The notes: a model not told the origin generated them from the sequence alone. A stretch of DNA of 53,888 nt from Nanobdellota archaeon (GCA_038045985.1 JBBSXA010000009.1:1-53888), one strand, 5' to 3'; positions 5,290 through 22,408 are shown, counted from the first letter of the stretch. Translations and numbers: made by a program.

Positions 5290-8200
5290 ATGGGGGTTAA
5301 AAGGAAAAGAGGAATTTTCGTTTTAGTTGCGTGTCTTTTTTTTATAATCATTCAGTTTGGAACTATTTCTGCTACTGATCTTCCTCCGGAATCCAGTGCC
5401 CCTTACCCTGACACCGGAACTTTTGTCCCAAGACAAGGGGAAGTAGGGGTTAGAGGAAGCATTGGAATAAGTTTGTATTCTGGGGCAGAGATTTTTATGT
5501 ACTCTTTATCTGTTCCACAGGGAACAAATTCTCTTAAACCAACACTGGAACTTTTTTACAATAGTCATCAATCAAAACTAAGGCAAGATTACATTGGAGG
5601 AGGTTGGTCATTAACACAAAACTATATAGAGAGATTAGTTAATCATTCTTCTTCAAATATATCTGATGATAAATTTGTTCTAGTTTTAAACGGGAATTAT
5701 CAAAAACTTGTTTTTTCCTCTCTTGATCAGAGATATCATACAGAAGTGGAAAGCTTTATGCATATAACAAATCTCTCTGGAGGAGATAATGCCAATGGAC
5801 AATACTGGATTGCTAAAACAAAGGATGGTACATCATACAGATTTGGTTTTATAAATAATTCTGAGTTGATTTCAAATTTACATAATTATACTGTAAGATG
5901 GAATCTTGATCTTGTTAATGATACATATAACAATTCAATATTTTACAGTTATCTTGAAGATCCTTTTACAAATGATAGCGGAACATCTTACTTAGACAAG
6001 ATTGAGTATAACAATGATAAAAGCAGGAAAATTGAGTTTTTGTGGGAGTCAGCAGATAGGCCAGACTTAATTACAACATATGAAGAAGGAAATAAAATCA
6101 GCAATTCTAGGCGATTAAAAGAGGTAATTGCAAGTGCAAATAATTCTTTGGTAAGCAGATATGTAATAGAATATATAAATTTTGAGCCGATTTCTGAATT
6201 GACTTTTATTTCTAACATAACTGAATATGGTAGTGATAATTCCAGTTCACTTTCTCCTACAAAATTTGAATATGATTTTTCTAGTGGGGCTATATGGGAT
6301 GGTGATACAAACGTGAATATGTCTTATCCTATGTGCAGTGGATATTATGATGACCCTCCTGGAACACCAAGAGTGTCTAATCTTTGCTTTGGTGGAGCTG
6401 ATGAGGGCAATATAAGATTCGCTGATGTAAACGGTGATGGTTTAATTGATATTCTGAAAAGTACTGAAGGGAAAGATGCGAGTTCGTGTCCGGGGGGAAC
6501 AGAGCCTTGCGGAGAGTCTGAAATATGGATAAGCAATGGCACTGGATGGACGAATCAAACTAGTTGGAATAAATCCTATCCAAAATGCAGTGGGTATTAT
6601 GGAGATTCTGTAACAACCAGAGAATCTGAGTTTTGCTTTGGAGGATTGGATGAAGATAACATTAGGCTAGAAGATGTGAATGGTGATGGGTTAATTGATA
6701 TCATGAAAAGTAGTGGGGGAATAGATGCGAGTTCTTGTCCTGGGGGAACTAAATCTTGTGGGAGTTCCAGAATTTTAATTAATAATGGAACTGGGTGGGA
6801 TGAAAACACAGCTTGGAATAGGTCCTATCCCAAATGCAGTGGGTCTTCAGAGGATCCGGCAGGGACTCCAAAAGAATCCAAATTATGTTTTGGAGAGAAT
6901 GAGGCTGACAATATTAGGTTTGCAGATGTAAACGGTGATGGATTATTTGATATCTTATACAGTTCTGGAGGTATAGATGGGAGTTCGTGCCCAGGTGGAA
7001 GTCAACCTTGTGGAGAGTCTGAGATATGGATAAATAATGGCAGTGGTTGGGACATAAACGCAACATGGAATAAGTCTTATCCTAAATGTAGCGGAGCTTT
7101 TGGAGATTCTGTAACAGCAAGGCAATCTCAATTTTGCTTTGGGGATAGCGATTCAGATAATATTAGATTTGCTGATATGAATGGTGATGGATTATTTGAT
7201 ATTTTGTATAGTTCAGGAGGAATAGATGCAGGTTCATGTCCGGGAGGAACTCAACCCTGTGGAAGCTCTAGAACTTTAATCAATAATGGCACTGGATGGA
7301 CTAATGATACTAATTGGAAATACCCTAGATGTAGTGGATCTTCCAGTGATCCTGGAGGCACGCCTAAGCAATCTGAACTTTGTTTTGGAGATAGTGATTC
7401 TGATAATATTAGATTTGCAGATGTTAATGGAGATGGATTATTTGATATTTTATATAGTTCTGGAAGCATAGATACAACCTCATGTCCTGGAGGCACTGAG
7501 TCTTGTGGTATATCAATCATTTGGGTAAATAACGGTTCTAGTTGGATTAATCAAACTAGTTGGAATAAGTCCTATCCAAAGTGTAGTGGATATTATGGAG
7601 ATTCTGTGACAACTAGAAAAGCTGATCTTTGTTTTGGAGAGAATGATGCCGATAATATAAGGTTTAGTGATGTTAATGGCGATGGTTTATTTGATATATT
7701 GTTTAGTTCTGAGGGAGTAGATATAGGATTTTGCCCAGGAGGAACTGAAAACTGTGGCAGATCAAGGGTTTATATGAATAATGGAACAACTTTTTTGTTA
7801 AATAAAATAACAAATGAATTTGGAGGCATTAGTCAAATCCATTATAAAGAATCTACATTATTAGATAACACTGGAGATGATAATTTTAGTGATATTGGAT
7901 TTAATATTTGGATAGTGGCAAACAAGACGGAAGATAATGGGATGGATGGAAGCCATAGTGTTCAATCAATTACAACATATAATTATTCCGGAGGAAAATA
8001 TGAGTATTATCCAAAAAATGAGTTTAGAGGATTTAATTATGCTGAAGAGATAATTGGAGACAAAGTAATCAATCATTGGTTTTATCAGGATGATGCAAAA
8101 AAGGGCATAGAATATGAAACTGAAGCCTTTGACAACCAAAGCAATCCTTATTCTAAAGTCTTGCAAACATGGAATTCCACTGATATGGGGAATTACTACG

Positions 8201-10614
8201 TTGTAAATCTTTTAGAAGCTTCAGAGCTGACTTATGATGGAAATCCTTTAAGCCCAAGAGTCAAAAATATCTCTTATGAATATGATAATTTTGGAAATAT
8301 TGTTAAAATACACAATAAAGGGGATATTGATAATTTAAATGATGACAGGTATGAGTATTACAACTATTTAAATAATTCAGCAAAATGGATAGTAAACAAA
8401 CTAAAGAATTACACATTGCTTAAGTTTGATAATTCAACAAAGACAAAAGAAAGGCTTTACAGCTACGACAACCTGGCTTACGGCCAGGCTCCGACTAAGG
8501 GAAGCCTGACAAAAGAAGAACACTGGCTTAGTGCTGGGACTAATCCAGTAATAAATTACAGCTATAACAGCTTTGGAAATTTAATCAATCAGACAGATGC
8601 AAGAGGCTATGTGACTAAATACAGATATGACCTCACAGGCACTTTTGTCAAAAATATAACTGATCCTAAAGGATTTATAACCCAATATGATTACGACTTA
8701 GGAACAGGAAACTTGAATTATATTTTAGACTTAAACAGCAAGTTTACAAATTACACTTATGATATTTTTGGAAGGATAACAAGGGAAATTCAGCCATATG
8801 ACTCTTTAAGCTTCCCTACAAAGAATTATACATATGAGTTTGATGGAATTGCTCCAGAGAAAATAAAAACAAGCCAGAGAGAGCAGAATAACACTGCAAA
8901 TACCTATGACAGCTATGAATTTTATGATGGTTTTGAAAGATTAATTCAGACTAAGACAGAAGCAGATAATAATAAAGAAATTGTCAATGATGTTTATTAT
9001 GACAGCATTGGAAGAGTTGATAAAAAAAGCAATTCGTATTTTACAGCTTTTGACAGCAACTATACAAATGCAAACTCAACTGTAAACTTCACAAAATATT
9101 CTTATGATATTTTAAATAGAGTTGTTAACACAACAAACTCTGATTCAACTTCAAGCAATGCAACTTACTCCCATTGGAACGTTACTTTTTATGATGAGAA
9201 TGGAAACAGGCTGGATCATTCTATGAATGCTTACAATCAAATAGTTGCAATAAGAGAATACAATCAAAACCAGACTTACATAACAAAATACACTTATGAT
9301 TCATCAGACAACTTACTAAGTATAACTGATTCATTAAATAATACATGGAACTATACTTATGACAGCCTCAGCAGAAAAACCTCTATGAAAGATCCTGATA
9401 CAGGAATCAGCAATTACAGCTATGATGCAAATGGCAATTTAATCCAGCAAATCTCTGGAGGCGGCAACCTCATAACAGGCGATAATTTCTATCGCGAATA
9501 TGACAATTTCGGCAGATTAAAAGCAATCTACGAAGGAAACGACAACAGCACATTAATTGAGCAATACACTTATGATCCTAACGGAGAGAGAATAAAAACC
9601 TTCAATAATATTACAAACACAACAACATACACTCCATTCAGAGAGTTCATGCAGATAAGAAATTCTTCTGGCATTTTTAATTACACTTATATTTATGACA
9701 ATGATATTTTAGTAGCTCGTATCAACCCAGATGGAAGCAAATGGTTTTATCATGCAGATCATCTTGGCTCGACGACGCTGATAACAAACCAGAGTGGAGG
9801 TATAGTAGAGAACACCTTTTACTTACCCTATGGAGAGGTAGATAGTGGGGGAACGCAGGAAAAGAAATTGTATGAAAACAAAGAATTTGATTTATCAACA
9901 GGACAATATTACTACGGAGCTAGATACTATGACCCATACAAACAAATCTTTATTCAGCCTGACAGCATAATACCTAATGTGTATGATCCGCAGCAGTTGA
10001 ACATATACTCGTTCAAAAGAACAAATCCGTATACTTATGTGGATCCGAGTGGGCATTCTATAATAGATTTTGCTACTCTCCTTGGAAACTATGTAACAAA
10101 AAAGTTTGGCTATTGGTTATTAGGAAAATCTTATGAGGGTGCCACTAGTAAGATTGAAGCACCCAAAGGGAGCAAGTTTTATGCAGACTCAGTTGATATT
10201 AGTATTGGGGGAATTAGTACGGCAACGAAGGTCGTTAGTAAGGCTGATGATTTAGCAGATGCATTTAAATTTTTGGATAAAGGAGAGAATATTGGAAAGG
10301 GAGCTAGTAAAGTTGATGAAGTTGCTGGCATTGGTAAAAATTTTGGTAGTGGGATGACAATAGAAAAAATAGATCCTAATAAGATAAGTCATATCTTACA
10401 ATCTCAACACAATTGGGGAAAGGTCGTTGATAATCCTGATAACTGGGATCAGATTTCTAAGGTTATTGACGATGTTTTGAAAAGTGGAAGTAAAATTCCC
10501 CATAGTTCACAGCCTAATATAGATGTTTATACAAAACAAATAAAAGGACAAACAGTTGAAGTTAGGTTTAATAATAAATATGGAATAGAAAATGCTTTCG
10601 TACAAAATGGATAA
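5290..10614 (+). CDS. Rhs/YD-repeat polymorphic toxin with TcB/TcC-like architecture
   Basis: In order: SpvB/TcdB-N-like LSVPQGTNSLKPTLELFYNSHQS...GGGWSL; six FG-GAP modules (DVNGDGLxDI); YNYSGGKYEYYPKNEFRGFNY; many YxYDxxGN repeats; Rhs core YHADHLGSTTLITNQSG...YYGARYYDPYKQIFIQPDS...NPYTYVDPSGH; then a 186-aa unrelated tip. Confidence 0.9.
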   Translation: MGVKRKRGIFVLVACLFFIIIQFGTISATDLPPESSAPYPDTGTFVPRQGEVGVRGSIGISLYSGAEIFMYSLSVPQGTNSLKPTLELFYNSHQSKLRQDYIGGGWSLTQNYIERLVNHSSSNISDDKFVLVLNGNYQKLVFSSLDQRYHTEVESFMHITNLSGGDNANGQYWIAKTKDGTSYRFGFINNSELISNLHNYTVRWNLDLVNDTYNNSIFYSYLEDPFTNDSGTSYLDKIEYNNDKSRKIEFLWESADRPDLITTYEEGNKISNSRRLKEVIASANNSLVSRYVIEYINFEPISELTFISNITEYGSDNSSSLSPTKFEYDFSSGAIWDGDTNVNMSYPMCSGYYDDPPGTPRVSNLCFGGADEGNIRFADVNGDGLIDILKSTEGKDASSCPGGTEPCGESEIWISNGTGWTNQTSWNKSYPKCSGYYGDSVTTRESEFCFGGLDEDNIRLEDVNGDGLIDIMKSSGGIDASSCPGGTKSCGSSRILINNGTGWDENTAWNRSYPKCSGSSEDPAGTPKESKLCFGENEADNIRFADVNGDGLFDILYSSGGIDGSSCPGGSQPCGESEIWINNGSGWDINATWNKSYPKCSGAFGDSVTARQSQFCFGDSDSDNIRFADMNGDGLFDILYSSGGIDAGSCPGGTQPCGSSRTLINNGTGWTNDTNWKYPRCSGSSSDPGGTPKQSELCFGDSDSDNIRFADVNGDGLFDILYSSGSIDTTSCPGGTESCGISIIWVNNGSSWINQTSWNKSYPKCSGYYGDSVTTRKADLCFGENDADNIRFSDVNGDGLFDILFSSEGVDIGFCPGGTENCGRSRVYMNNGTTFLLNKITNEFGGISQIHYKESTLLDNTGDDNFSDIGFNIWIVANKTEDNGMDGSHSVQSITTYNYSGGKYEYYPKNEFRGFNYAEEIIGDKVINHWFYQDDAKKGIEYETEAFDNQSNPYSKVLQTWNSTDMGNYYVVNLLEASELTYDGNPLSPRVKNISYEYDNFGNIVKIHNKGDIDNLNDDRYEYYNYLNNSAKWIVNKLKNYTLLKFDNSTKTKERLYSYDNLAYGQAPTKGSLTKEEHWLSAGTNPVINYSYNSFGNLINQTDARGYVTKYRYDLTGTFVKNITDPKGFITQYDYDLGTGNLNYILDLNSKFTNYTYDIFGRITREIQPYDSLSFPTKNYTYEFDGIAPEKIKTSQREQNNTANTYDSYEFYDGFERLIQTKTEADNNKEIVNDVYYDSIGRVDKKSNSYFTAFDSNYTNANSTVNFTKYSYDILNRVVNTTNSDSTSSNATYSHWNVTFYDENGNRLDHSMNAYNQIVAIREYNQNQTYITKYTYDSSDNLLSITDSLNNTWNYTYDSLSRKTSMKDPDTGISNYSYDANGNLIQQISGGGNLITGDNFYREYDNFGRLKAIYEGNDNSTLIEQYTYDPNGERIKTFNNITNTTTYTPFREFMQIRNSSGIFNYTYIYDNDILVARINPDGSKWFYHADHLGSTTLITNQSGGIVENTFYLPYGEVDSGGTQEKKLYENKEFDLSTGQYYYGARYYDPYKQIFIQPDSIIPNVYDPQQLNIYSFKRTNPYTYVDPSGHSIIDFATLLGNYVTKKFGYWLLGKSYEGATSKIEAPKGSKFYADSVDISIGGISTATKVVSKADDLADAFKFLDKGENIGKGASKVDEVAGIGKNFGSGMTIEKIDPNKISHILQSQHNWGKVVDNPDNWDQISKVIDDVLKSGSKIPHSSQPNIDVYTKQIKGQTVEVRFNNKYGIENAFVQNG
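6290..7800 (+). repeat. six tandem ~83-aa FG-GAP-like modules (in-gene tandem repeat, ~250 nt period) with four conserved Cys each
   Basis: Repeated W-N-K-S-Y-P-K-C-S-G ... C-F-G ... D-N-I-R-F-A-D-V-N-G-D-G-L-F-D-I ... S-C-P-G-G-T-x-x-C-G ... N-N-G-T-G-W. Odd and even modules alternate (DPxGTP/CGESEIW versus GDSVTxR/CGSSR). Confidence 0.85.
9616..9968 (+). repeat. copy A of a ~353-nt direct repeat (Rhs core coding sequence)
   Basis: Aligns base by base with 11689-12041. Includes long identical runs, e.g. tatgacaatgatattttagtagctcgtatcaacccagatggaagcaaatggttttatcatgcagatcat. Confidence 0.9.
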
Positions 10615-11083
10615 TAGCAGTTTAATTATAGATATTGAAAGAGGAGATTATTATAATGCAAAAAAGAAAATGAAACAAATTAAATTTTTGGAATTTAAAA
10701 ATTTGCTTTTTGATTATACCCATATCAATGAAAATAACAACATACTTAAATTTTTAAAATATTTATTAAAAAAAGAAAAATCTAAGAAAAAATTAGTAAA
10801 GTTATACTTGCTTGCTTCTGGAATTGTCGAATCTCCACCATATCTTTACAAACTTAAGAATGCTTATAAACTATCTTTAATTTATCTAAGAAAAGCACTT
10901 AGATTAGATCCAAGCAATATTGTGGTTAAGTCCTGCATTTTATTTCTATATGGCTCTCCAGGAGTAAATTTAAAAGAGAAGGAAATTGAAATAATAGCAA
11001 AAGAAGTTTTAGAACAAGAGTCAAAAAATAAAATTGCCAAGAAGGCTTTGGACTATTTAGAAGGGAAAGCTAAAAATAAATAA
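10607..11083 (+). CDS. putative cognate immunity protein (helical, TPR-like)
   Basis: The ATG at 10607 overlaps the Rhs stop (aATGGATAAt). The position immediately after the toxin tip is the canonical immunity slot. No family recognised. Confidence 0.5.
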   Translation: MDNSSLIIDIERGDYYNAKKKMKQIKFLEFKNLLFDYTHINENNNILKFLKYLLKKEKSKKKLVKLYLLASGIVESPPYLYKLKNAYKLSLIYLRKALRLDPSNIVVKSCILFLYGSPGVNLKEKEIEIIAKEVLEQESKNKIAKKALDYLEGKAKNK

Positions 11084-11102
11084 AATATCAAAAAATCCAA
11101 AC

Positions 11103-11678
11103 ATGTCCGAAAGTAAATACAACTTAAAAAAGATAGATGGTTGGTTAATCTTCTTCATAGTAACAATCATCTTTTTTCTACCTGTGTTAAATATCTATGA
11201 GTTCTTTAAAAATCCAATTTTTGGAATTGGAGGATATTTTGACTTATTTGGCATGGTCACTGCTATGATTTCATCTGGAATTTTTCTTTTATTTAAAAAA
11301 AGTTACTCAATAACCTTTACAAAGGCAGTATTAATTTCCTTTTTTATTGCTACAGTAGTTTATTTTCCATTAAAAGGATCTATTCTGGTAATAAATATTC
11401 TTTATCCAATAATTTGGTTTGTTTATTTTAGTTATTCTAAAAAAATGAATGTAATATATGGAAAAATAAAACCTCTTAAAAATGGAAAACTAGTTTTACC
11501 AATTTTTTCAATGATTTATTCCATAATCTCTCCAATTTTAGGATTAGTCATGAGTATTTTTTCTTTGAAACAAATTAGAAAAAATAAAAGATTAAAAGGT
11601 TTTAGATTATCTGTTTTTGCATTAGTAATTTCAATTATTTTGATTATCTTTGCGATCTTAGATTTAATATTTATTTAA
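11103..11678 (+). CDS. multi-pass membrane protein (about 5 hydrophobic segments)
   Basis: ORF track; hydrophobic throughout. Lies between the immunity candidate and the orphan Rhs core. Confidence 0.5.
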   Translation: MSESKYNLKKIDGWLIFFIVTIIFFLPVLNIYEFFKNPIFGIGGYFDLFGMVTAMISSGIFLLFKKSYSITFTKAVLISFFIATVVYFPLKGSILVINILYPIIWFVYFSYSKKMNVIYGKIKPLKNGKLVLPIFSMIYSIISPILGLVMSIFSLKQIRKNKRLKGFRLSVFALVISIILIIFAILDLIFI

Positions 11679-11679
11679 A

Positions 11680-12102
11680 ATGAAATCAAACACAACAACC
11701 TACACTCCATTTAGAGAGTTCATGCAGATAAGAAACTCTTCAGGAGTTTATAATTATACTTACGTCTATGACAATGATATTTTAGTAGCTCGTATCAACC
11801 CAGATGGAAGCAAATGGTTTTATCATGCAGATCATTTAGGTTCAACAACTTTGATTACAAATCAGTCTGGAGGTATAGTAGAGAACACCTTTTACTTACC
11901 CTATGGAGAGGTGGATAGCGGCGGAACGCAGGAAAAAAGGCTTTATGAATCTAAGGAGTTTGACAGTGCAACAGGGCAGTATTATTATGGCGCAAGATAC
12001 TATGACCCATACAAACAAATCTTTATTCAGCCTGACAGCATTGAGAATTCAAAAGAGTTAAAATGGAAAAGCAATTTATGGTTAAAAGGGCTGAAAAAAT
12101 AG
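11680..12102 (+). CDS. orphan Rhs core fragment (140 aa) lacking the DPxG cleavage motif and any toxin tip
   Basis: About 90% aa identity to residues encoded at 9616-9968 of the main rhs gene. Homology ends exactly at ...IFIQPDSI, followed by 19 unrelated residues and a stop. Confidence 0.75.
   Translation: MKSNTTTYTPFREFMQIRNSSGVYNYTYVYDNDILVARINPDGSKWFYHADHLGSTTLITNQSGGIVENTFYLPYGEVDSGGTQEKRLYESKEFDSATGQYYYGARYYDPYKQIFIQPDSIENSKELKWKSNLWLKGLKK
11689..12041 (+). repeat. copy B of the ~353-nt Rhs-core direct repeat
   Basis: See copy A at 9616-9968. Confidence 0.9.
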
Positions 12103-12104
12103 AA

Positions 12105-13253
12105 ATGAAAAAGGAAAAAATAGAGGAAGGAAGAGAGGAGAATAGAATCGTTCTGATTCTGGTGGCAGTTGCCTTATCATTGTTAATTCTTCCAAATATC
12201 TCAGCATCAATTCAGAATTTATCTTATGACAGCGGAAAGAATACAATCAATACAAGTTATGACAGCAAAAACAGAATTCTGAATCAGACAGGAGATTCTG
12301 ACTGGAATAAATATTTTTATGATGTTGGCATGAATGACACAATAACCAATATAAGCAATGATGATAATGTTGCTATTAAGTATGAATATGATAATAAAAA
12401 GAGAGTTATTAAAGAGACAAAAGAAATTGACGGCTTAATATTTGAAAGAAAGAGCTCATTTGATTCCTTTGATAGGCCAGTAAATTTATATGGCTCAATG
12501 AATACAATGAATTTTACTTATGGAAACAATTCATTGGTTTCAGCCATATTAAATGTAATTAGCTCAATATTCTATAACGAGCAGAAACAGCCTTTAAATA
12601 AGACTTACAACAATAATCTTGCCACTAATTTCACTTATTATGTTAATTTTAGACTCAAGGAAATCAAAACAGGCAATAAACAGGGCTTATTTTATAGTTA
12701 TGATAATGCTGGAAATGTAAAAAACATTAATGATACTGCAAACTTAAGAGTTTATTCCATGTCTTATGATAATTTAAACAGATTAATAAGCGCCGACATA
12801 AAAAATAATGCAAATTCAAGCGATAATCCTATTAATTACAACTATAACTCAATAGGCAATATATTGAACAGCACTTCGCCCAGCAGAAATTTAACTTATT
12901 ATTACGGCCAAACCAGAGTTCATGCACCAATTTCTATAGATGATGGAGCTTCTTCACAGCTAATTGATGTTTACAATTTAACGCATCTCAATACACAGGC
13001 TGTTAAAAGACTAACTTTTGGCTTCTTTATCCAGAATCTTAACAGCTCAACAATGAATAATATTTCTTGGAATTTTAATACAGGGCAGAGTAATATAACT
13101 TCCGTAACAAATTCAACACTTATTTCAAACAAGAGCAAATATGTTATTGTAGAATATGAATATCAGGGAACTGGCATAGAGAATCGAACAGTGATCGCAA
13201 CAGCGTCATCAAATGGCATTTCAGACTCAGAATCAATTGAGGTGATAGCATGA
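12105..13253 (+). CDS. short secreted YD-repeat protein
   Basis: Signal anchor IVLILVAVALSLLILPNISA, then YD-type repeats (LSYDSGKN, SYDSKNRIL, YEYDNKKRVI, YSYDNAGNV, MSYDNLNRL). ATG 12105 lies 2 nt after the orphan's stop. Confidence 0.65.
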   Translation: MKKEKIEEGREENRIVLILVAVALSLLILPNISASIQNLSYDSGKNTINTSYDSKNRILNQTGDSDWNKYFYDVGMNDTITNISNDDNVAIKYEYDNKKRVIKETKEIDGLIFERKSSFDSFDRPVNLYGSMNTMNFTYGNNSLVSAILNVISSIFYNEQKQPLNKTYNNNLATNFTYYVNFRLKEIKTGNKQGLFYSYDNAGNVKNINDTANLRVYSMSYDNLNRLISADIKNNANSSDNPINYNYNSIGNILNSTSPSRNLTYYYGQTRVHAPISIDDGASSQLIDVYNLTHLNTQAVKRLTFGFFIQNLNSSTMNNISWNFNTGQSNITSVTNSTLISNKSKYVIVEYEYQGTGIENRTVIATASSNGISDSESIEVIA

Positions 13254-15199
13254 AAATAAATCTGGATAAAAAGAGAAAAGTGACGTTAGGAATATTCATA
13301 GTTTTAACTATTTTAATATCTTTGATTTTGTTTGTTAAATCTTTAGGTGAAACAAGCTTAAATTTCAATGATTTAAATTCTCAATGGGAAATAAATAATG
13401 AGAAACTAATTTATTACTTCGACAAGGATTCTGGCTTAAAATTTAGTAATAATAAAGATTATTATGAAAATAGGTTAGAGATTTGCGTTTATATTGGAGC
13501 AAATGAAAATTGTATTGATAAGCTTAACTTGAATCAGCCAATTTACGACGGTAAAAACATAGATTTAATAGGAACTTATGAAAATGAATTATTTGTCTTT
13601 AATTTAACTTACAGAGTTTCCAATGAAATAAGGCAGTTAAGCTGGGAAAACATGGAAATCAAGCATGAGCTTGAATTAATACCTAGATTGACATTAAAAA
13701 CAGGTATAAATGAAGATGTTGGCATAAAATTCAGGTTTAAAGATATTAATATGGAAAATACTTCAGAAAATGATTATATTTATATTGGCAAGAAGAAATA
13801 CTTTTTGAATCAAAACTTGGATTTAGAATTTGAAAATATAACTCAAATATTAGAAAGCAAAGACACAACTTATACAATTAATCAAGATTGTTATAATTCT
13901 TGTGAGTTAGATAATATAAATTGCGAAGATAGATGCAGAATTGCTGATGAGAAAGTTGTAGGATATATCTATAAGAGCTTGCCTTATTTTATGATCCAAG
14001 AAAGAAATGAGTTTCAATGGCTTTTATGGGATGAAAGCCTTGATTATAAATTAAATATTAAGACAGAAGAAACTCAATACAATGCTCCAGTAACTTTGGA
14101 GATTAATTTCGGAAAAGTCTCTGAAGCAACAACTTCTTTGTACTGGTATGATCCTCAAGTCAAATTTTACGATAATTTTGACGATAATTCCTTATCTTCC
14201 AATTGGACGGAGATTAATCAAGATGCAGGAAGCGATTTAAAAGAAGAAAATCAGATTTTGAATTTAACAACAGGGCCAGGATATGCCCATACAGGTACAA
14301 CTGCTTTGATAGGAGATAAATGCCCTCTTGCTGATGGATGCAATCCAATAGAATATGACAAATCTGGAAATTATACAATAAGCTTTGACTGGAAATTTAA
14401 CTGGAATGGGTCAAAAGCAGGGCATGATGGAGTATGGATAATGCATCCAGATGCTCATATGAATCCATCTGATGGTGGAAACAGAGAGCTGACCTATTAT
14501 TCAGGAGTTATGGGAAGAACACTTTTCTACTCTTTAGGAAGAGGATGCGCTGCAGGAACAAATGAAAGCGTATTAATTGCTGCTGATGACAATTCAAGCT
14601 CCTGGCATTGCACTTGGGAGCATGAAGTTGCAAGAAATAACAGCAATATTTTTACAGAGGCTGCTTGGTATTCTGTAAAGATACTTGTTAATTGGAATAC
14701 AAATTATACTGAAGTAAGAGTGAATGACAACATTGTTGCCAATGGAACAATTAATTCAACATGGGCAAGTGCAATAGGCAGTAAATTTAGAGTTGAGATG
14801 CATGTATCGCATTATCCTTACACAAGCGCAAGCGAGAATGACAATTATGACAATTTCACAATTTATGATTACTGGGTTTCTGCTTCATCTGCAAATGAAT
14901 CTCATGGCAGAAATGCAATTGTTGAAGGAATAAACAACATAATTCCCAATTCAACAATTTACACTGATTTTGAAGTTGATATAAGGTATTTCAATGGAAC
15001 TCAGGCAAGAGGCAGTTTTGATAAAGTTGCTTTCTTAAATAATCAAACATGGGCTTTCAATTACATAACAGGAAGTGAAAGCTCAACAAATTTAAACAGC
15101 AGTTCATATAAAATATTCAATGTTTGGGAGAAAGGCGGACTGACTTACAGCCAGATTGTCAGCCAGGTTCAGAGTTATATTAATCAGACAAAAATATAG
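13250..15199 (+). CDS. secreted protein, C-terminal half possibly a concanavalin/LamG-like lectin fold
   Basis: ATGA overlap with the upstream gene. Signal anchor. Segment FYDNFDDNSLSSNWTEINQD...LNLTTG is typical of LamG-like domain starts (weak, by eye). Confidence 0.55.
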   Translation: MKINLDKKRKVTLGIFIVLTILISLILFVKSLGETSLNFNDLNSQWEINNEKLIYYFDKDSGLKFSNNKDYYENRLEICVYIGANENCIDKLNLNQPIYDGKNIDLIGTYENELFVFNLTYRVSNEIRQLSWENMEIKHELELIPRLTLKTGINEDVGIKFRFKDINMENTSENDYIYIGKKKYFLNQNLDLEFENITQILESKDTTYTINQDCYNSCELDNINCEDRCRIADEKVVGYIYKSLPYFMIQERNEFQWLLWDESLDYKLNIKTEETQYNAPVTLEINFGKVSEATTSLYWYDPQVKFYDNFDDNSLSSNWTEINQDAGSDLKEENQILNLTTGPGYAHTGTTALIGDKCPLADGCNPIEYDKSGNYTISFDWKFNWNGSKAGHDGVWIMHPDAHMNPSDGGNRELTYYSGVMGRTLFYSLGRGCAAGTNESVLIAADDNSSSWHCTWEHEVARNNSNIFTEAAWYSVKILVNWNTNYTEVRVNDNIVANGTINSTWASAIGSKFRVEMHVSHYPYTSASENDNYDNFTIYDYWVSASSANESHGRNAIVEGINNIIPNSTIYTDFEVDIRYFNGTQARGSFDKVAFLNNQTWAFNYITGSESSTNLNSSSYKIFNVWEKGGLTYSQIVSQVQSYINQTKI

Positions 15200-15255: not shown

Positions 15256-15450
15256 ATGGCAAGGAAACCAAAATTTAAAGATTCTGTAGTTAAAATTGAT
15301 TCTGTTCTAAATGAAAATATAGAAGAATTTATTTCTGATGACGAAAATAGACTAAAATTTGTTAGTAAGAAACATTTTGTGGATTTAGCAATCCAGAATT
15401 TTTTTAAGAAAATTAAAGAAGATGGAGATACTAAGAATGAGAAACATTAA
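15256..15450 (+). CDS. small ribbon-helix-helix (CopG/MetJ-like) DNA-binding protein
   Basis: 64 aa. Basic N-terminal strand (RKPKFKDSVVKIDS) followed by two predicted helices. Overlaps the start of the giant adhesin gene. Confidence 0.45.
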   Translation: MARKPKFKDSVVKIDSVLNENIEEFISDDENRLKFVSKKHFVDLAIQNFFKKIKEDGDTKNEKH

Positions 15451-18400
15451 AATAAAGAAACCTTTATTTTTTGCAGTTTTTTTACTAATTGTAATTTTAG
15501 TTGTAAATTTTATTCTGGCTGTACCTAATTTTTTAACTTCTGGCTCAACTAATTATACAAATGAAGATTCTTCACCTTCATTTTGGATAAACTTTACAAA
15601 TCTAACAAATAACAGCTTAAATGAAATTTTGGTTTTTGATATACTTGAGATTAGCTCTTCTAACTCATTACATTCTGGATTTACATTAAGTAATTACACG
15701 TGGATAACTTGGAATGACACTTCAGCAAAAACAAACTCTAGCAAAGGTATAATGAATATTAATGCAACTAGAGATAATGAAACAGGTAGATTTAATGTTA
15801 CAATATTTGTTGGTAATTATCCAGAGAGGGTTGGAGAATCTAGACCCTTTTATTTTGAAGTCAACGCAACAAATGATCCTCCAAATTTTACAAATATTAA
15901 TACAACTTATAATATAACCTCCCTAGAGCCCTTGTTTTTGCACTTGAATGCGACAGATGAAGAGGGGCATTATCCCTTGAATTTTACAGTTGCCTTTAAC
16001 AGCACTTCATGCGTTCATGCATCTTGGAGCGGCATGAACAATAACCAGAATTGTTCTCTGTTTGGGTTTGGATTTAATTTCAGCCATACTAACAATCTTT
16101 CTGCGTTGATGAATTTCACGCCGACAGCCAATCATGTCGGAACTTATTATGCAAATATTTCAGTCGTGGATTTTGGAGCGAGATATAACAGCAGCGCTTC
16201 TCCATATCAAACATCTGATTATTCTTTGAATAAGACAACTTATTATTCAAGCACAGTAACTTTTAATATATTTTCTTCCTTGAGCCTTAATACAGGCAAT
16301 TGCGACAATAAAATATTTCAAGAAAATCAATATGGATCCTGCAATGTGACTGTAAGAACAAAGGGAGCAGCAGACAGCTTGAACATATCTTCTTATGCAA
16401 TTTTAAGACATTACGCCTCTGGCCAAAGCTCTGTAAGCAACACGAGCTGGTTTTATTTGAATCACACAAATATTTCCTCTAATTTTGAGTATAATGTCAC
16501 TATAAATGTGTCTCCATCCAAGACTGAAATAGGCAATTGGACAATTAATTTTACAGTCACAGACACGACTTACAGCGAAACCTCAACTTCCCAAATTTAT
16601 GTTTATGTGAACAGAACTTCTAATGATGTTCCGGATCTTGACAGCATAAGCAATGTCAACACTTCTATAAATTTGCTTACTGTCATAAATTTGGCAGTCT
16701 ATGATGATGATTTGCTTGTTCCGGACAAAAATTCCAGCTTTGGCGGATTTAATGAGACAACAACTTTCAACAGGACAATATTAAACCAGTCTAATTTATC
16801 CCAGCAATTAAGTTTGTCCAATTTTAGCATAGGGATTTTGCAGATGCCTGTTTCAGGTACAAACAGGACAACCGCTGAAATAAGATTTACTTCAAATTCC
16901 AGCGATGTTGGAAGCTATACAGTCAATATAACTGCAAATGACTCTCAAGGCAGCAGAGATTTTGGGATTTTTAACCTTAGTATAATAAACAATTCTGCGC
17001 CTGATTGGAATAGCACTTTAACAACCAACTTTTCATTAACAGAAGACACTTTATTCTATCTTAACTTAAGCCAGAATGTTTCTGACTCTGATGGAAACAC
17101 GCTGACTTTTTCTTATGCTAATGACACCTCTTTTGACAATTTCAATTTGACAAGCGCAGGAATAATTAACTTTACGCCGAGAGATGCTGATGTAGGCCAG
17201 CATATTGTTAATATAACTGTCAGCGATGGATATTTAACAGACACAGCGCAATTTAGCATTAATGTTTCAAATGTCAATGATAGCGTCTCTATTATAAGAA
17301 TCTCCACAGCAAATGCCAGCACTAATGAAACATTCAATTATATTCTAGGCGCTTCTTTGGTCAATTTGACTGAGGATAACTATACTACTTTTACCCTTTT
17401 AATTGAAGATGATGATTTTAAGATTCCCAGCGGGCAGAAGTCTTATTATAATGAGAGCTTAACAGTTAACTTGGCTATTCAGGGCCCTAATACAACTCTT
17501 TTTAACTTTACATATGACAGCATGATAACTTCAAACAGGTCGGTTTATGTTTCATCTTTCACTCCGAGAAAAGCAAGTGTAGGAAATTATAATGTTACGG
17601 TTAATGCCTCTGACCGGAATGGAACTTTCAGCTCTCTCTCTTTTACTATGACTGTCCTTAATGTAAGCCATAATCCAGTAATGTCGAGCTTGTCTAATCA
17701 GAGTTCTGCAGTAAACAGAAGTTTTTATTATGATGTGAACGTTACTGACACAGAAAATGGAAATGACACTTCGGGCACGAACACCAACTTTACTTTTTCT
17801 TACACTAATTTGTCTGGAAATAATATTTTTTCAAGCTATTTCAATACTACAACAGGTGTTTTTAACATAACTTTTAATTCAAGCCATGCCGGCTCTTACG
17901 GCTTGAGTGTTACAGTTACTGACTCTGGAGGCTCTACTGACACAGAGACTTTCTGGATTTTTGTCTACAACTCCCCTAATGTCACATCACCTGCTTCAGG
18001 TTATGTTTTTAATCAAACTGAGAATACAACATCAATTTTGAATTTCACTGTAAATCATACTGTTTTAGACAATTTGACTTACTTGTTTTATGTGGATGGA
18101 ATCACCTGTGCTTATCAGAGTAATTTAAATTGCAATTATACCTCTTCTCTTTTAAGAAATACAGTTAACTATTATGGAAATGGAACCAGCTACAACTGGA
18201 GTTTTACACCTAATTTTACAGATGAGACTTATGGGCTTTTGAAAAATCTAACTTTAGTCGTATATCCTAATTCAAGCTCTCTTGTAAATGCAAGCCAGAT
18301 TAACACGACTGTTGTTTACAAGCTTAACATAAGCCATACAAATTCTCCTCTTACTTTTAGCGGAGATATCAGCGACAAAGGTCCGGTTACGCACGACAAT

Positions 18401-19408
18401 GATATTACTTTTAGTTTGACGGATTATTTTTCAGATGCAGATTACAGCGATTCTTATTACGCTCAAAGCGTTACTTGGACTTTGAATAGCAACACTTCTT
18501 TGATTACTTCAAGCGTTTCTTCTTCGTGGGCATTAACTTTAAGCGCTTCGACTGCTGTTATTGGATCGGTTAATATAACTGGAAATGACGGCTCGACTAA
18601 CGCTACAAGCAACCAGTTTATTGTTATATTCACAGAGCCGAGCGTTTCGTCGAGCAGTTCCTCCTCCAGCAGCAGCGGCGGAGGGGCGTCAGAGATTCCT
18701 GTTTCATTAAAAATCCTGCTTCCTGACCCTATTTCAGCATTTCAAAAAGACAAGATAGTCCTGCCTATAACTTTGCATAATACCGGATCTGTGGTTTTGA
18801 ATAGAGTCAGCCTTTTTGCCAGTGTTGCTTACAACGGCTCTATTGCTGAGGATATTAATCTTACTTTTGATAATTCCTATTTTAACGCTATTGGCATTGG
18901 AGAAAAAAAGAATACTACTTTGACAGCTAATATAGATACTAACAGGCTCGGGCTTTATGAAATAACTGTAAATGCTTCTGTAGATATTCCTGATTACAAT
19001 GACTGGGGAAAGATTTATTTAACAATTAAAGAAGGGGAGAATATTGAAGAGAAAATATTGTTCACAGAAGAATTTATTGTCAGCAATCCCGAATGCATTG
19101 AACTTAAAGAGCTTGTTGATGAGGCAAGAGAGTTTTTGAGTTTTGGAAATACCGAAGCTGCTATAAAAAAGACTGATGAGGCTTTAGATGCATGCAAAAG
19201 TGCGATTGCGCAAGCAGGCAAATCAAAGATAAAGGAAATTATTGAGAATAAATTTTACAGGTATTTAGCTATATCTGCAATAGTTGTCCTTTGCGTAGGC
19301 GTCTCTTATTATTCTTATAAAAGAATCAAACTTAAAAGAATGAGAGGGGTCTTTGCACAGCAAGATATAAAAAACAGAAAGTATTTAGAGCGTCAATATG
19401 GAAGATAG
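15437..19408 (+). CDS. giant cadherin-like repeat surface protein with Ser/Gly linker, C-terminal beta-sandwich, helical stalk and TM anchor
   Basis: Module boundaries NDPPNF / NDVPDL / NSAPDW / NVNDSVSI / SHNPVM. Cadherin-like ends such as VNITVSDGYLTDTAQFSINVSNVND. Linker SSSSSSSSSGGG. Ends AISAIVVLCVGVSYYSYKRIKLKRMRG. The start could also be 15422. Confidence 0.8.
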   Translation: MRNIKIKKPLFFAVFLLIVILVVNFILAVPNFLTSGSTNYTNEDSSPSFWINFTNLTNNSLNEILVFDILEISSSNSLHSGFTLSNYTWITWNDTSAKTNSSKGIMNINATRDNETGRFNVTIFVGNYPERVGESRPFYFEVNATNDPPNFTNINTTYNITSLEPLFLHLNATDEEGHYPLNFTVAFNSTSCVHASWSGMNNNQNCSLFGFGFNFSHTNNLSALMNFTPTANHVGTYYANISVVDFGARYNSSASPYQTSDYSLNKTTYYSSTVTFNIFSSLSLNTGNCDNKIFQENQYGSCNVTVRTKGAADSLNISSYAILRHYASGQSSVSNTSWFYLNHTNISSNFEYNVTINVSPSKTEIGNWTINFTVTDTTYSETSTSQIYVYVNRTSNDVPDLDSISNVNTSINLLTVINLAVYDDDLLVPDKNSSFGGFNETTTFNRTILNQSNLSQQLSLSNFSIGILQMPVSGTNRTTAEIRFTSNSSDVGSYTVNITANDSQGSRDFGIFNLSIINNSAPDWNSTLTTNFSLTEDTLFYLNLSQNVSDSDGNTLTFSYANDTSFDNFNLTSAGIINFTPRDADVGQHIVNITVSDGYLTDTAQFSINVSNVNDSVSIIRISTANASTNETFNYILGASLVNLTEDNYTTFTLLIEDDDFKIPSGQKSYYNESLTVNLAIQGPNTTLFNFTYDSMITSNRSVYVSSFTPRKASVGNYNVTVNASDRNGTFSSLSFTMTVLNVSHNPVMSSLSNQSSAVNRSFYYDVNVTDTENGNDTSGTNTNFTFSYTNLSGNNIFSSYFNTTTGVFNITFNSSHAGSYGLSVTVTDSGGSTDTETFWIFVYNSPNVTSPASGYVFNQTENTTSILNFTVNHTVLDNLTYLFYVDGITCAYQSNLNCNYTSSLLRNTVNYYGNGTSYNWSFTPNFTDETYGLLKNLTLVVYPNSSSLVNASQINTTVVYKLNISHTNSPLTFSGDISDKGPVTHDNDITFSLTDYFSDADYSDSYYAQSVTWTLNSNTSLITSSVSSSWALTLSASTAVIGSVNITGNDGSTNATSNQFIVIFTEPSVSSSSSSSSSSGGGASEIPVSLKILLPDPISAFQKDKIVLPITLHNTGSVVLNRVSLFASVAYNGSIAEDINLTFDNSYFNAIGIGEKKNTTLTANIDTNRLGLYEITVNASVDIPDYNDWGKIYLTIKEGENIEEKILFTEEFIVSNPECIELKELVDEAREFLSFGNTEAAIKKTDEALDACKSAIAQAGKSKIKEIIENKFYRYLAISAIVVLCVGVSYYSYKRIKLKRMRGVFAQQDIKNRKYLERQYGR

Positions 19409-20573
19409 AGGTGAGGAAATAAAGAGCTGGCTTAAAGAAGCCATTCGAAGAGGGTATTCTGATTTGGAAATTAGAGATCTTCTTAATAGCAATGGATATT
19501 CTCCAGAAGAAATACATGGTGTTTTTGTGATGAAGAGAAAATTTAAGAAAAATAAATTAATTTTTCAAAAGGACAAAGTTAAGCTTAACAGATTTTCTAA
19601 GACGTCAGAGCAAGTTCCTGAAGAGATTAGAGAAGTTTATGATCTTCTTCTGCAGACTAGAATAGAAGTCGCGAAAGTTATTATAGGGCAGAAAGATGTT
19701 GTTGATGCTTTTATGTGCGCATTGCTTTGCGACGGCCATGTTTTGCTTGAAGGAGTTCCCGGAATAGCCAAGACTCTTCTTGTTAAGACTTTGGCGCAGG
19801 CATCTGGCTGCCTGTCCCATAGGATTCAGTTTACAGTTGATCTTCTTCCCAGCGATATTGTCGGGATAACTACTTACACTCCTGAAAAAGGCTTTGAGGT
19901 AATCAAAGGCCCTGTTTTTGCTAATTTTATTATTGGTGATGAAATAAATAGGAGTCCTCCAAAAACTCAGTCAGCTCTTATAGAAGCAATGCAGGAGAAG
20001 CAAGTTACTATTGGAAAGCAGACTTTTCCCCTGCCAAGCCCTTTTTTTGTCATGGCAAACAACAATCCATTAGAGAGCAGTGGTGTCTATGATCTTCCTG
20101 AGGCGCAGGTGGACAGATTTTTGTTTAAGGTTATTATGGGCTACCCAAATGGAAGTGAAGAGGTCAAGATTATGGAAGATAACATGACTCTTAGAAAGTT
20201 TGAGAGTTTTGACATTAAGCCTATCCTTTCGGCTGAAAAAATATTGGAAATGCAGGAAATTACAAAAAAAATTCATATGGATGATAAAATCAAGAATTAT
20301 ATTGTAAGGCTTGTTGAAAAGACAAGAAAAAGAGATTTTGACAACGGGAAATATATCGAGTGGGGCGGGAGTCCGAGAGCGAGCATTGGAATCTTTATCG
20401 CTTCAAAAGCCTGGGCTTTAATGAATGGAAGAAACTATGTTATTCCCCAGGATGTCAAGGACATAGCGCACTATGTTCTCCGCCACAGAATAATATTAAA
20501 TTACAAGGCAAGGGCAGAAGGAATAACTTCCGACAAGATTATAGATGAGATTTTTGCGATAGTTAATATTTGA
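19398..20573 (+). CDS. MoxR-family AAA+ ATPase with ~70-aa N-terminal extension
   Basis: GHVLLEGVPGIAKT (Walker A), ANFIIGDEINR (Walker B), QSALIEAMQEKQVTI, and the GGSPRA C-terminal lid. Overlaps the adhesin stop by 11 nt. Confidence 0.85.
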   Translation: MEDRGEEIKSWLKEAIRRGYSDLEIRDLLNSNGYSPEEIHGVFVMKRKFKKNKLIFQKDKVKLNRFSKTSEQVPEEIREVYDLLLQTRIEVAKVIIGQKDVVDAFMCALLCDGHVLLEGVPGIAKTLLVKTLAQASGCLSHRIQFTVDLLPSDIVGITTYTPEKGFEVIKGPVFANFIIGDEINRSPPKTQSALIEAMQEKQVTIGKQTFPLPSPFFVMANNNPLESSGVYDLPEAQVDRFLFKVIMGYPNGSEEVKIMEDNMTLRKFESFDIKPILSAEKILEMQEITKKIHMDDKIKNYIVRLVEKTRKRDFDNGKYIEWGGSPRASIGIFIASKAWALMNGRNYVIPQDVKDIAHYVLRHRIILNYKARAEGITSDKIIDEIFAIVNI

Positions 20574-20635
20574 CGCAATTCTCTTATGGATTGTATATTC
20601 TGAAACATACAAAACTTTATAATTTATTTTATCTG

Positions 20636-21040
20636 ATGGTTTTGATGGCTGATTTAAGCACTGCGAAAAACTGCATTGATGCAATGATAAAAGAAGGGAT
20701 TTATAAAGGAGAAAGGGTAGGGAGAGTAACAAGAGATATTGGAGGAATCACTTCCCAGGTTTCTGGATTTCCTATTTATAACAAAGGACAGATTGTTTTA
20801 TTCAGGCAGGAGGAAGATTTGCCTGAAGGCACTTTGTCTACAGAATTGCTGAGAAGGGAATATGAAAAGATGGGAAAAAAGATGCCCAATAGTTTTGTGA
20901 CTGTTGAAAGCCCTTTGTCGCCAGGTGAAATTGCTAAACAAAGAGAAAGAGGCTCTTTGATAACTACTGTAAAAACGACTGTGGGTGTGCCTAGAAATTA
21001 CATAACTTATCTAAAGTATGTTAAGAAGATTGTTATTTAG
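20636..21040 (+). CDS. hypothetical protein (134 aa from the first ATG)
   Basis: ORF track (tracked TTG start at 20570). TATA-like ctttataattt lies upstream of ATG 20636. No family recognised. Confidence 0.4.
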   Translation: MVLMADLSTAKNCIDAMIKEGIYKGERVGRVTRDIGGITSQVSGFPIYNKGQIVLFRQEEDLPEGTLSTELLRREYEKMGKKMPNSFVTVESPLSPGEIAKQRERGSLITTVKTTVGVPRNYITYLKYVKKIVI

Positions 21041-21138
21041 AAAGTTTTTCCTTTTTAGAGGATGTTAATTGATTTCTATTTATTTGTTAGTCGAAGACTT
21101 TATTAATATTAATTACATGCTTTATAAAAGGGGTAAGA

Positions 21139-21492
21139 ATGGAAAAAAGAAATTGGGTAATATTAATTATTTTGGCTGTTTTGATAATTTTAGTTTTTCT
21201 ATTCAAAGATTTTCTTATTGTGAAAAATGAAGAATTAGTAAAAGCTGATTACTGTGAACAGACCAGCGACTGTGTTCTGGCTGTTAATCCAAGCAGCTGC
21301 TGTGTTTGTCCTATGCCTTATAACAAAAAAGTTGTTGAGCTTGAAGATAATCTAATTGCTTATGATGAAAATGTTAATTATTTATTATATGATAAAGATG
21401 CAGATTGCAGAAATATAGCTTGTGAAGCCTGCCCGCAATTAGGCAATTTAGGGTGTTTACAAAATAAATGTTTGAATATAATCCCTATTTAA
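21139..21492 (+). CDS. small secreted Cys-rich protein
   Basis: Signal anchor, then 11 Cys (CEQTSDC...SSCCVCP...DCRNIACEACP...GCLQNKC). Confidence 0.5.
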   Translation: MEKRNWVILIILAVLIILVFLFKDFLIVKNEELVKADYCEQTSDCVLAVNPSSCCVCPMPYNKKVVELEDNLIAYDENVNYLLYDKDADCRNIACEACPQLGNLGCLQNKCLNIIPI

Positions 21493-21496
21493 TAAA

Positions 21497-22408
21497 ATGC
21501 CAATACAAAAAAATATCCCTCAAAAGAAACTTAATGTAAATGTTGCTGATGCAATATCTGAATTCCAGTCTGTAATGAAAGAATTCAAGCTTAGAAAAGA
21601 CATCTACAGGATTATTTTCAGGGGAAAAGGGCTTGAATTTGAATCTTACAGAGATTTTTCTCCTGATGAGGATGCTTCTGATATTGATTGGAAAGCCAGC
21701 TCTAGAGCCCAAAAACTTCTTGCCAAGCAGTATAAAGAGGAAAGAGATTTGAAAATAATGTTTTTAGTTGATGTGGGAAACAACATGGTTTTTGGATCTG
21801 GGGAAAAATTAAAATGCGAATATGTTACAGAGCTTGTTGCCGCTTTTTCAAAAATAATTCTTGAATCAAATGACAGAGTAGGCATTTATCTTTTTTCAGA
21901 CAGAGTCAAGTATTTTATAAGCCCTAAACTTGGGGAGAGACATTTTCAGTTTATGATTGATTTGCTTTCAACGCCTAAAACTTATGGAGGAACAACAGAT
22001 ATTGATCTTGCAATTGATTATGCTATGAGGTATTTAACAAGCTCAATTAATTCAGTTATTTTGATATCTGATTTTTTGAGAATTTCAAAAGATACAGAAA
22101 AAGCAATTGATCTGCTTTCTAATAGGTTTGAAACAGTTATTATTAGGGTTAAGGATATTCTTGATCTAACTCTTCCTGATGTTGAAGGGGAAATAGTTGT
22201 TGAGAGCCCTGTTAACGGGGAGCAGATTGTGGTTAATCCAAAAGTTGTCAAGAGTTCTTATGAAAAATATGCTTTTGAACAGTCAAAGGCGGTTGAAGAT
22301 ATTTTTAAAAACAGCGAAGCTGATTATCTTGATCTTCTTACAAATAAGAGCTTTGCCATTCCTCTTGCAATGTTCTTGAAAGAAAGGCTGGACAGGAAGG
22401 CAAGATGA
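21497..22408 (+). CDS. DUF58 family protein (MoxR-associated, VWA-like)
   Basis: DIDWKASSRAQKLLAKQYKEERDLKIMFLVDVGNNM matches the DUF58 signature. Sits in the usual MoxR-DUF58-VWA order. Confidence 0.75.
   Translation: MPIQKNIPQKKLNVNVADAISEFQSVMKEFKLRKDIYRIIFRGKGLEFESYRDFSPDEDASDIDWKASSRAQKLLAKQYKEERDLKIMFLVDVGNNMVFGSGEKLKCEYVTELVAAFSKIILESNDRVGIYLFSDRVKYFISPKLGERHFQFMIDLLSTPKTYGGTTDIDLAIDYAMRYLTSSINSVILISDFLRISKDTEKAIDLLSNRFETVIIRVKDILDLTLPDVEGEIVVESPVNGEQIVVNPKVVKSSYEKYAFEQSKAVEDIFKNSEADYLDLLTNKSFAIPLAMFLKERLDRKAR

Follow-up and report, generated by a model that had tools for sequence, protein, structure and literature searches.

A truncated second copy of the Rhs core behind a TcB/TcC-like toxin gene of a DPANN archaeon: a probable remnant of C-terminal displacement

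Introduction

In the rhs loci of enterobacteria, C-terminal displacement gives rise to orphan core fragments of varying length, and one proposed intermediate is a circle that carries a tip and a core fragment (Jackson et al., 2009; PMC2935791). Recombination between a main gene and an orphan has been shown experimentally in Salmonella, across 522 bp at 95% identity (Koskiniemi et al., 2014; PMC3967940). Loci of contact-dependent growth inhibition (CDI) hold fragments that lack both the cleavage motif and an immunity gene (Poole et al., 2011; PMC3150448). Among archaea, RHS polymorphic toxins have been noted in a few species, such as Methanosarcina acetivorans (Zhang et al., 2012; PMC3482391), and polymorphic toxin systems are predicted for many archaea but are reported to be uncharacterised (PMC8416519, citing Makarova 2019). 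On polymorphic toxins in DPANN archaea the literature searched is almost silent, and no paper that brings DPANN together with RHS or YD repeats turned up in full-text searches. Here we analyse a stretch of 53,888 nucleotides (nt) from a Nanobdellota archaeon (GCA_038045985.1, JBBSXA010000009.1:1-53888; the whole stretch is hereafter called the window) in which a full-length Rhs gene is followed by a truncated second copy of its core region, the orphan.

The window resembles the enterobacterial rhs loci in having a full-length gene followed by a fragment in the same orientation that repeats the 3' core, a tip/immunity region of low G+C content and, between main and orphan copies, a few hundred nt of homology usable for recombination (355 nt at 87% identity, and 522 bp at 95% in Salmonella). 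It differs in its host, a DPANN archaeon, in having no type VI secretion system context within the window and in the protein itself, which is a predicted TcB–TcC-like fusion. Its orphan, a relic and not a cassette that could still be used, has neither a full core repeat nor the DPxG motif, a tip or an immunity gene, and the boundary of the array is a gene encoding YD repeats and an immunoglobulin (Ig)-like domain that is part of the shell protein in most relatives. The orphan fragments of CDI loci are similar in that the upstream homology is kept while the demarcating motif, the toxin and the immunity gene are lost, although CDI concerns a two-partner-secreted filament of bacteria and the window an archaeal Rhs shell. 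In its FG-GAP, TcdB_toxin_midN, RHS-shell and C-terminal core regions the main gene matches the Tc cocoon (TcdB2–TccC3, YenB–YenC2) and teneurin-like shells; unlike in Tc, its tip is a polymorphic-toxin RNase domain, and no TcA-like partner was identified in the window, although several large open reading frames (ORFs) there have no family match. Methanosarcina acetivorans also carries archaeal RHS-repeat polymorphic toxins with toxin/immunity cassettes (PMC3482391), whereas the family of the window, unlike these earlier archaeal cases, is abundant in DPANN metagenome bins.

We argue below that the second copy is probably the decayed last orphan of such a displacement. The orphan itself is of a known kind, the routine debris of Rhs tip swapping, in a new archaeal setting that is seemingly under-described. 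Read in this way, it is a clear example of a C-terminus that was displaced and then decayed, and the statistics support a mosaic left by gene conversion. The locus is one at which toxin cassettes sit between a shell gene and a YD/Ig gene, the products of which are joined in a single polypeptide in most relatives. Among the ultra-small DPANN archaea of groundwater, Rhs/Tc-like toxin genes with orphan arrays seem to be common, and through such loci one can ask how episymbiotic archaea compete or attack their hosts and how toxin modules are grafted onto shells.

The direct repeat

The features on which the argument turns are the following.

5290–10614, + strand: main Rhs gene, 1774 residues, identified by Pfam and NCBIfam matches and PDB sequence matches
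9614–9968, + strand: repeat copy A, main-gene residues 1443–1560 (NTTTYTPF...IFIQPDSI), from repeat search, pairwise alignment and ungapped comparison
11680–12102, + strand: orphan ORF, 140 residues, consisting of MKS, a 118-residue core fragment and an unrelated tail of 19 residues
11687–12041, + strand: repeat copy A', 87% identical to A in nucleotides and 94% in amino acids, a mosaic of identical and divergent blocks

Copy A comprises the last shell strands and the first two-thirds of the Rhs core. It recurs as A' at an offset of 2073 nt, and the two align without gaps over 355 nt with 309 identities (87%). They are direct repeats that lie in identical codon phase in the main ORF 5290–10614 and the orphan ORF 11680–12102, and 111 of the 118 encoded residues are identical. 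An earlier reading made from the sequence alone (the sequence-only reading) had reported a repeat of 353 nt (9616–9968 and 11689–12041) with identical runs of about 70 nt and peptides differing at only a few positions. All of this was borne out: the repeat extends 2 nt further to the left in each copy (to 9614 and 11687), identical runs reach 69 nt, the next longest being 47 and 45 nt, and the peptides differ at seven positions. The homology does end at the same codon in both copies, as claimed, but this holds for any ungapped repeat and is uninformative. The description as a near-identical duplication was overstated, since the identity of 87% is distributed as a strong mosaic (positions in A):

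9616–9693: 86% identity
9694–9762: 100% identity (69 nt)
9763–9794: 66% identity
9795–9839: 100% identity (45 nt)
9840–9921: 71% identity
9922–9968: 100% identity (47 nt)

The differences between A and A' fall 9/5/33 on the first, second and third codon positions, with a synonymous divergence (dS) of ∼0.73 and a ratio of nonsynonymous to synonymous divergence (dN/dS) of 0.07; one run of six codons is wholly synonymous and yet contains 11 nucleotide changes. When codon columns were shuffled, the observed clustering of differences was significant both for the longest identical run (p = 0.002) and for the sum of the top three runs (0 of 20,000 shuffles). The identical blocks are not conserved at the nucleotide level in the family, where other loci are 58–75% identical to the window over the same segments. 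In the block HLGSTTLITNQS, A and A' are 66% identical, compared with 84% between A' and locus L018. Pairs of main and orphan cores in other loci are 66–86% identical.

With dS at ∼0.73, blocks at 66–71% and clustered differences, A and A' are best regarded as diverged alleles under protein-level constraint rather than as a fresh copy and its source. The pair shows neither the near-identity throughout nor the even spread of neutral differences of a recent segmental or tandem duplication. Because the clustering is non-random and the identical blocks are not conserved as nucleotides in the family, we read the latter as short conversion tracts by which the alleles were later patched.

The arrangement does not stem from an error of assembly. 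Three long contigs encode precisely this orphan protein, with the same gene order. The junction from the membrane-protein gene to A', including variants specific to A', is matched at 100% identity in three other runs or assemblies (L026, L027 and L028), and the junction from A' to the downstream X-Ig gene (see below) in another (L024); the junction-spanning unitigs and contigs come from ERR3858118, ERR3858116 and ERZ1292638. Short unitigs and contigs end inside the identical blocks, as expected at a repeat.

The end of the conserved core and the toxin tip

The segment that follows A in the main gene consists of two parts.

9970–10059, + strand: end of the conserved core, residues 1561–1590 (IPNVYDPQQLNIYSFKRTNPYTYVDPSGH), present in the main copy only
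10060–10611, + strand: variable tip, 184 residues from about residue 1591, with the Ntox35 domain inside it

The sequence-only reading had placed the junction of core and tip at QPDSI, with the divergent tip beginning immediately after it. The stretch concerned is instead the conserved last 30 residues of the Rhs core, which runs on from QPDSI through IPNVYDPQQLNIYSFKRTNPYTYVDPSGH to DPSGH, as judged by the span of a family model, the C-termini of the family and alignment to solved Rhs/TcC structures. TIGR03696 matches residues 1511–1589 of the main protein over model positions 1–76 of 76 (a complete core) and the orphan over positions 1–56 of 76 only; C-termini of the family retain the pattern ...QPDxxxxxxYxPQxLNxYSYxxNNPYxYxDPxG; and the main protein aligns with PDB chain 8h8a through ...NPIQWIDPTG, the C-terminal end of that chain. 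The main copy contains a cleavage motif of the PxxxxDPxG type, NPYTYVDPSGH, with H in place of the usual L. Because the core continues past QPDSI, the break in the orphan falls within a folded domain and does not mark a recombination hotspot; what had been called the QPDSI junction is the end point of a deletion. Presumably the orphan has thereby lost the second catalytic aspartate as well as the cleavage site; by comparison with RhsA and TcC, the residues expected to be catalytic in the main protein are D1558 and D1585.

The main protein consists of a hydrophobic signal-like segment at the N-terminus, TcB-like FG-GAP/TcdB_toxin_midN modules, a YD/RHS shell, the Rhs core and the Ntox35 tip. 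RHS repeats are matched by PF05593 (E = 3.6e-26) and TIGR01643, and a TEN_YD-shell match is on record. The core region aligns up to the cleavage sites with the PDB sequences of solved Rhs, TcdB2–TccC3, YenC2 and teneurin-like shells, the sequence identity of which to the main protein is low. Ntox35 (PF15534), a predicted BECR-fold RNase of polymorphic toxins (PMC3482391), is located at residues 1694–1763 (about 10369–10578), with E = 3e-8 for the whole protein and 3e-9 for the tip alone. These matches uphold the assignment to an Rhs polymorphic-toxin locus (RHS repeats, TcdB_toxin_midN, FG-GAP, complete TIGR03696 core and Ntox35 tip) and identify the predicted product as a TcB/TcC-like Rhs protein with an Ntox35 RNase tip. 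By family membership, it should autocleave between DPSG and H, which would release the encapsulated RNase. The tip, the G+C content of which is 35%, has only distant Ntox35 relatives (best 37% identical) among 1.84 billion cluster representatives, none of which shares a cassette boundary with it, and unrelated tips follow the same DPxG motif in relatives of the main gene. Five to six tandem repeats of ∼250 nt (83 residues; 60–75% nucleotide identity) occur within the gene at 6316–7814 and encode FG-GAP-like propeller blades (...DVNGDGL.D...).

Two small genes complete the interval between the copies.

10592–11083, + strand: immunity candidate, 163 residues, soluble; overlaps the Rhs stop by 23 nt; role assigned by position
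11103–11678, + strand: membrane protein, 191 residues, multi-pass, weak DUF4190 match

The ORF list confirms the overlapping immunity candidate, the membrane protein and the end of the Rhs gene between the copies, as had been described, except that the tip starts at about residue 1591 and not at QPDSI. ORF 10592 has no family match at E ≤ 0.01, tetratricopeptide-repeat (TPR) matches being below threshold; judged from its position, it is likely to be the cognate immunity gene. Both genes are poor in G+C (24.8% for ORF 10592 and 23.4% for ORF 11103, compared with 33.7% for the window), which fits a foreign or fast-turnover cassette, and tblastn found no homologue of either in any fetched locus. 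ORF 11103 may encode a second immunity protein or an orphan one. Since the present tip, a predicted RNase, would act in the cytoplasm, ORF 11103 may be the orphan immunity gene of an earlier cassette; by analogy with locus L019 (see below), one may speculate that the earlier tip acted on membranes.

The orphan and its slot in related loci

Downstream of A' the orphan runs directly into the neighbouring gene.

12042–12104, + strand: orphan tail, the X-Ig leader in another frame; deletion junction at 12041/12042
12105–13253, + strand: X-Ig gene, with a conserved MKKEK start; the longest ORF begins at 12063

The ATG of the orphan lies 1 nt past the stop of the membrane-protein gene. After ...QPDSI the orphan continues for 19 codons (ENSKELKWKSNLWLKGLKK) that represent the 63-nt X-Ig leader read in another frame and end at a TAG (12100–12102) 2 nt before the X-Ig start at 12105. 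ORF and domain searches confirmed the earlier description of 19 unrelated codons to a stop: the orphan has no DPxG motif and no toxin domain (no Pfam match in the tail), and no immunity gene lies behind it, the next gene being X-Ig, which is the border of the array in relatives. Its orientation, its location 3' of the main gene and its slot, which is that of the orphans in L019 and L021, are those of a partial core; a core end with PxxxxDPxGL, a distinct tip and an immunity gene of its own, as found in an orphan module, are missing. The label 'unusual' was too strong, given the CDI fragments that lack motif and immunity gene (PMC3150448) and similar truncations in three other DPANN loci. A fusion of A' to X-Ig by slippage at the A-run near 12094 was considered and rejected, as inspection found no canonical in-frame slippery heptamer there, a signal-like segment would end up buried in the fusion product and relatives do not share the arrangement.

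The X-Ig protein has a signal-like N-terminus, ∼240 residues of YD repeats ending in YYYG..HAP and an Ig-like C-terminal domain. From end to end, including the MKKEK start and the hydrophobic N-terminus, it shows 40% identity (E = 2e-73) to the product of the gene that follows P0127, a related shell gene. Synteny was assessed by tblastn of the window modules against the fetched loci; scans of genomes and metagenomes with the core peptide returned four and six loci, respectively, which were highly informative about synteny, although none was close enough to polarise the events. X-Ig lies 3' of the cassettes in L010–12, L015 and L018–21, representing six related locus types, and is the conserved right-hand border of the toxin/orphan array. 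We considered whether ORF 12063 might be the remnant of a second shell gene and rejected this, as it is the ortholog of a conserved separate gene in the six other locus types.

The order kept in relatives is a shell gene with core and tip, small ORFs, optional orphans and X-Ig. Loci L015, L018 and L020 have no orphan and consist of shell–core–tip, small ORFs and X-Ig. In L019 the main gene is followed by two orphans before X-Ig, each of which has a complete core end and a tip of its own and is accompanied by a small membrane-like ORF, a candidate for immunity (the membrane-like character of the small ORFs after the L019 tips was judged by eye from hydrophobic stretches). L021 has three core copies before X-Ig, and its orphans also keep the core end. 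The P0127 locus, found on four contigs of different origin, lacks a toxin: its shell gene breaks off 19 residues into segment A and is followed by 15 unrelated codons and a stop that overlaps the X-Ig start (ATGA), a layout like that of the window but with a different break point in the core. Two further groups stop before DPxG, namely P0003 of marine loci (L002–L007; NNPYK followed by MWIRAGMMRY) and P0014 on a contig from Hainich H51 (L008), which ends in QPDSIIPDVYNTTPQ. Core fragments there adjoin short pieces of the shell N-terminus (shell residues 46–265 in L002 and 4–164 in L008). L002–L007 and L008 look like heavily decayed Rhs loci.

Given the order in relatives and a tail that equals the X-Ig leader, A' occupies the slot of the last orphan, with everything between QPDSI and the X-Ig leader lost. 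The proposal that the second copy is a displaced or orphaned core fragment is thus supported by its location in the orphan-cassette slot of its relatives.

Proposed history and alternative explanations

We consider A' quite probably to be the decayed last orphan of a C-terminal displacement, with its tip and immunity gene deleted and conversion acting later. A toxin cassette (core fragment, core end, Ntox35 tip, ORF 10592 and ORF 11103) would have recombined into the 3' end of a resident gene by homologous recombination in the YD/core region, and the resident core fragment would have been pushed downstream, whether through a linear fragment or a circular intermediate. Before or after that displacement, the stretch that followed QPDSI, from within the core to the X-Ig leader, would have been deleted, and with it the orphan's core end, tip and immunity gene; the resident gene was perhaps disarmed first, as in P0127, and re-armed later. 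Short-patch gene conversion between A and A' would then have made the three blocks identical. Of the two fates that the sequence-only reading had offered, deletion of the displaced tip fits the truncated core, the tail derived from the X-Ig leader and the complete orphans of relatives, and service only as a recombination substrate is unlikely. The orphan is unable to supply a toxin, its only foreseeable activity being that of a 355-nt direct repeat. A crossover between A and A' would delete the 2073-nt toxin–immunity unit in frame and leave a toxin-less shell protein of 1579 residues; because this product, with the immunity gene lost, is all that a crossover yields, A' is not a resource for diversification.

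Several points weigh against this history. The nearest shell homologue is 44% identical, the states before displacement and before deletion have not been seen, and the order of events is a reconstruction. Recombination with third alleles before A and A' met could explain part of the mosaic. The orphan ORF begins with an ATG of its own and is uninterrupted by stops or frameshifts, which would also fit selection on a small protein. In addition, the autocleavage motif ends in H and not in L, and toxin activity, immunity and autocleavage are themselves predictions from sequence.

Direct repeats in one codon phase, the crossover product of which would be in frame, and the evidence of past exchange between A and A' would also suit an arm/disarm switch or mobility device, in which the 2073-nt unit is excised as a circle and re-inserted at core-bearing loci, with P0127-type loci as 'empty sites'; the existence of a toxin-less relative with a short core stub (P0127) and the circular intermediate proposed for enterobacterial rhs (PMC2935791) point in the same direction. 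We regard such a device as distinctly unlikely, since every contig and unitig from at least four samples has the full arrangement with no deletion junction among them, the excised state loses immunity and would be counter-selected among armed siblings (an argument made in PMC3967940), and a mosaic of 87% identity is a poor substrate for recombination. Nor is P0127 the product of a crossover between A and A', because the break points differ (19 residues into A compared with 118 in the window). Unlikely, too, is a broader scenario in which A and A' make the unit excisable and re-insertable via the core among DPANN archaea, P0127-like loci have been vacated and X-Ig is the oldest displaced C-terminus, domesticated as a secreted protein. 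The 140-residue orphan might alternatively be an expressed small protein: it could, for example, act as a decoy for the shell or help to assemble it, or, as an upstream ORF, couple its translation to that of X-Ig. The intact ORF with its ATG 1 nt past the preceding stop, the stop 2 nt before the conserved X-Ig start, the dN/dS of 0.07 and the absence of any terminator-like site in 9400–13400 in a promoter/terminator scan would agree with this, and Salmonella orphan Rhs elements are reported to work as independent toxin–antitoxin modules (PMC7043789) (promoter-like matches in our scan were at chance level, the consensus used being bacterial and uninformative for an archaeon). It is nevertheless very unlikely: the orphan, truncated within a folded domain, lacks a signal peptide, no homologue with its truncation point or tail was found, the low dN/dS may be inherited from full-length genes and maintained by conversion, and in L019 the ORF before X-Ig is a small membrane-like immunity candidate, so that coupling of a core ORF to X-Ig is not conserved.

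Two simpler origins of the repeat fare no better. A recent intragenomic duplication of the 2073-nt unit whether in tandem or by replication slippage, with the second tip lost afterwards, would give the A–B–A layout and the identical runs of 45–69 nt; it is most improbable in the face of the dS of ∼0.73, the blocks at 66–71%, the synonymous six-codon run with 11 changes and the block in which A' is nearer to another locus than to A. An assembly that merged two strains, one armed and one with a truncated toxin-less gene, might account for the way in which short unitigs break off precisely within the identical blocks, as they do at repeats or strain bubbles, but it is extremely improbable, as the membrane-gene–A' junction is covered at 100% by L026, L027 and L028 and the A'–X-Ig junction by L024, and the three long contigs agree. 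The decayed orphan of a C-terminal displacement remains the preferred explanation.

Relatives of the shell protein and the position of the array

The full main protein was searched against 5.8 billion proteins, and ∼120 full-length relatives are among the matches listed. No alternative tip on the same shell was found in this search; the next-best shell relative being only 44% identical, the data contain no strain-level tip variants. Tip variation, suggested earlier as a test, was not seen for this shell gene, with the same arrangement in at least four samples; in the family at large, tips vary widely.

In 91 of 119 full-length relatives, the shell protein itself contains the X segment. By architecture, 76 relatives have X without a core, 15 have X followed by core and tip and 25 have a core without X. 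The gene after X-Ig extends this relationship.

13250–15199, + strand: ORF 13250, 649 residues, overlaps the X-Ig stop; compared by BLASTP and tblastn with the fetched relatives and loci

ORF 13250 is homologous to the C-terminal part of P0175, a fused relative of 2576 residues that is colinear first with the window shell (to about residue 1393), then with X-Ig and then with ORF 13250. The toxin module that goes with P0175 is encoded upstream, in a 'mini-Rhs' gene of its own (signal peptide, a short stretch of YD repeat, core and tip). From this colinearity and the fusion of X in relatives, the toxin module and orphan array in the sub-lineage of the window appear to lie between two parts of what is one polypeptide elsewhere, and the comparison suggests that X-Ig may be the oldest displaced C-terminus.

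Stand-alone mini-Rhs genes without a shell (signal peptide, ∼50 residues of YD repeat, Rhs core and toxin tip) occur in L009 (7479–8717) and L013 (9383–10939), and many of the matches of 200–500 residues in the tip search are also mini-Rhs-like. The one in L009, immediately 5' of a shell gene that lacks a toxin, carries a DUF2380 tip and is accompanied by a DMP19-like immunity gene.

Host and other features of the window

The contig derives from a metagenome of 0.1-µm-filtered Hainich groundwater. A YGR210-type GTPase, a Kae1-like TsaD and a TrmB regulator are encoded in the window, and the relatives of the main Rhs protein whose source is named are almost all Pacearchaeota, Woesearchaeota, Nanoarchaeota or other DPANN, the sole non-DPANN label being one bacterial taxon (Ignavibacteria). 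The gene content and these relatives point to a Pacearchaeota-like DPANN archaeon.

Directly 3' of the Rhs locus (15422–23325), the gene for a 1328-residue Ig-domain protein is followed by genes for a MoxR-type AAA ATPase, a DUF58 protein and a VWA/BatA protein, in what resembles a MoxR–VWA operon. A second giant ORF (30036–35432; 1798 residues) has no family match. On the minus strand, a HEPN-domain gene adjoins a nucleotidyltransferase gene (25297–26318), and the pair resembles an MNT/HEPN toxin–antitoxin system. The DNA gyrase B gene (46896–50072) is split by an intein (Intein_splicing, residues 455–859), with gyrA next to it at 51203–53677.

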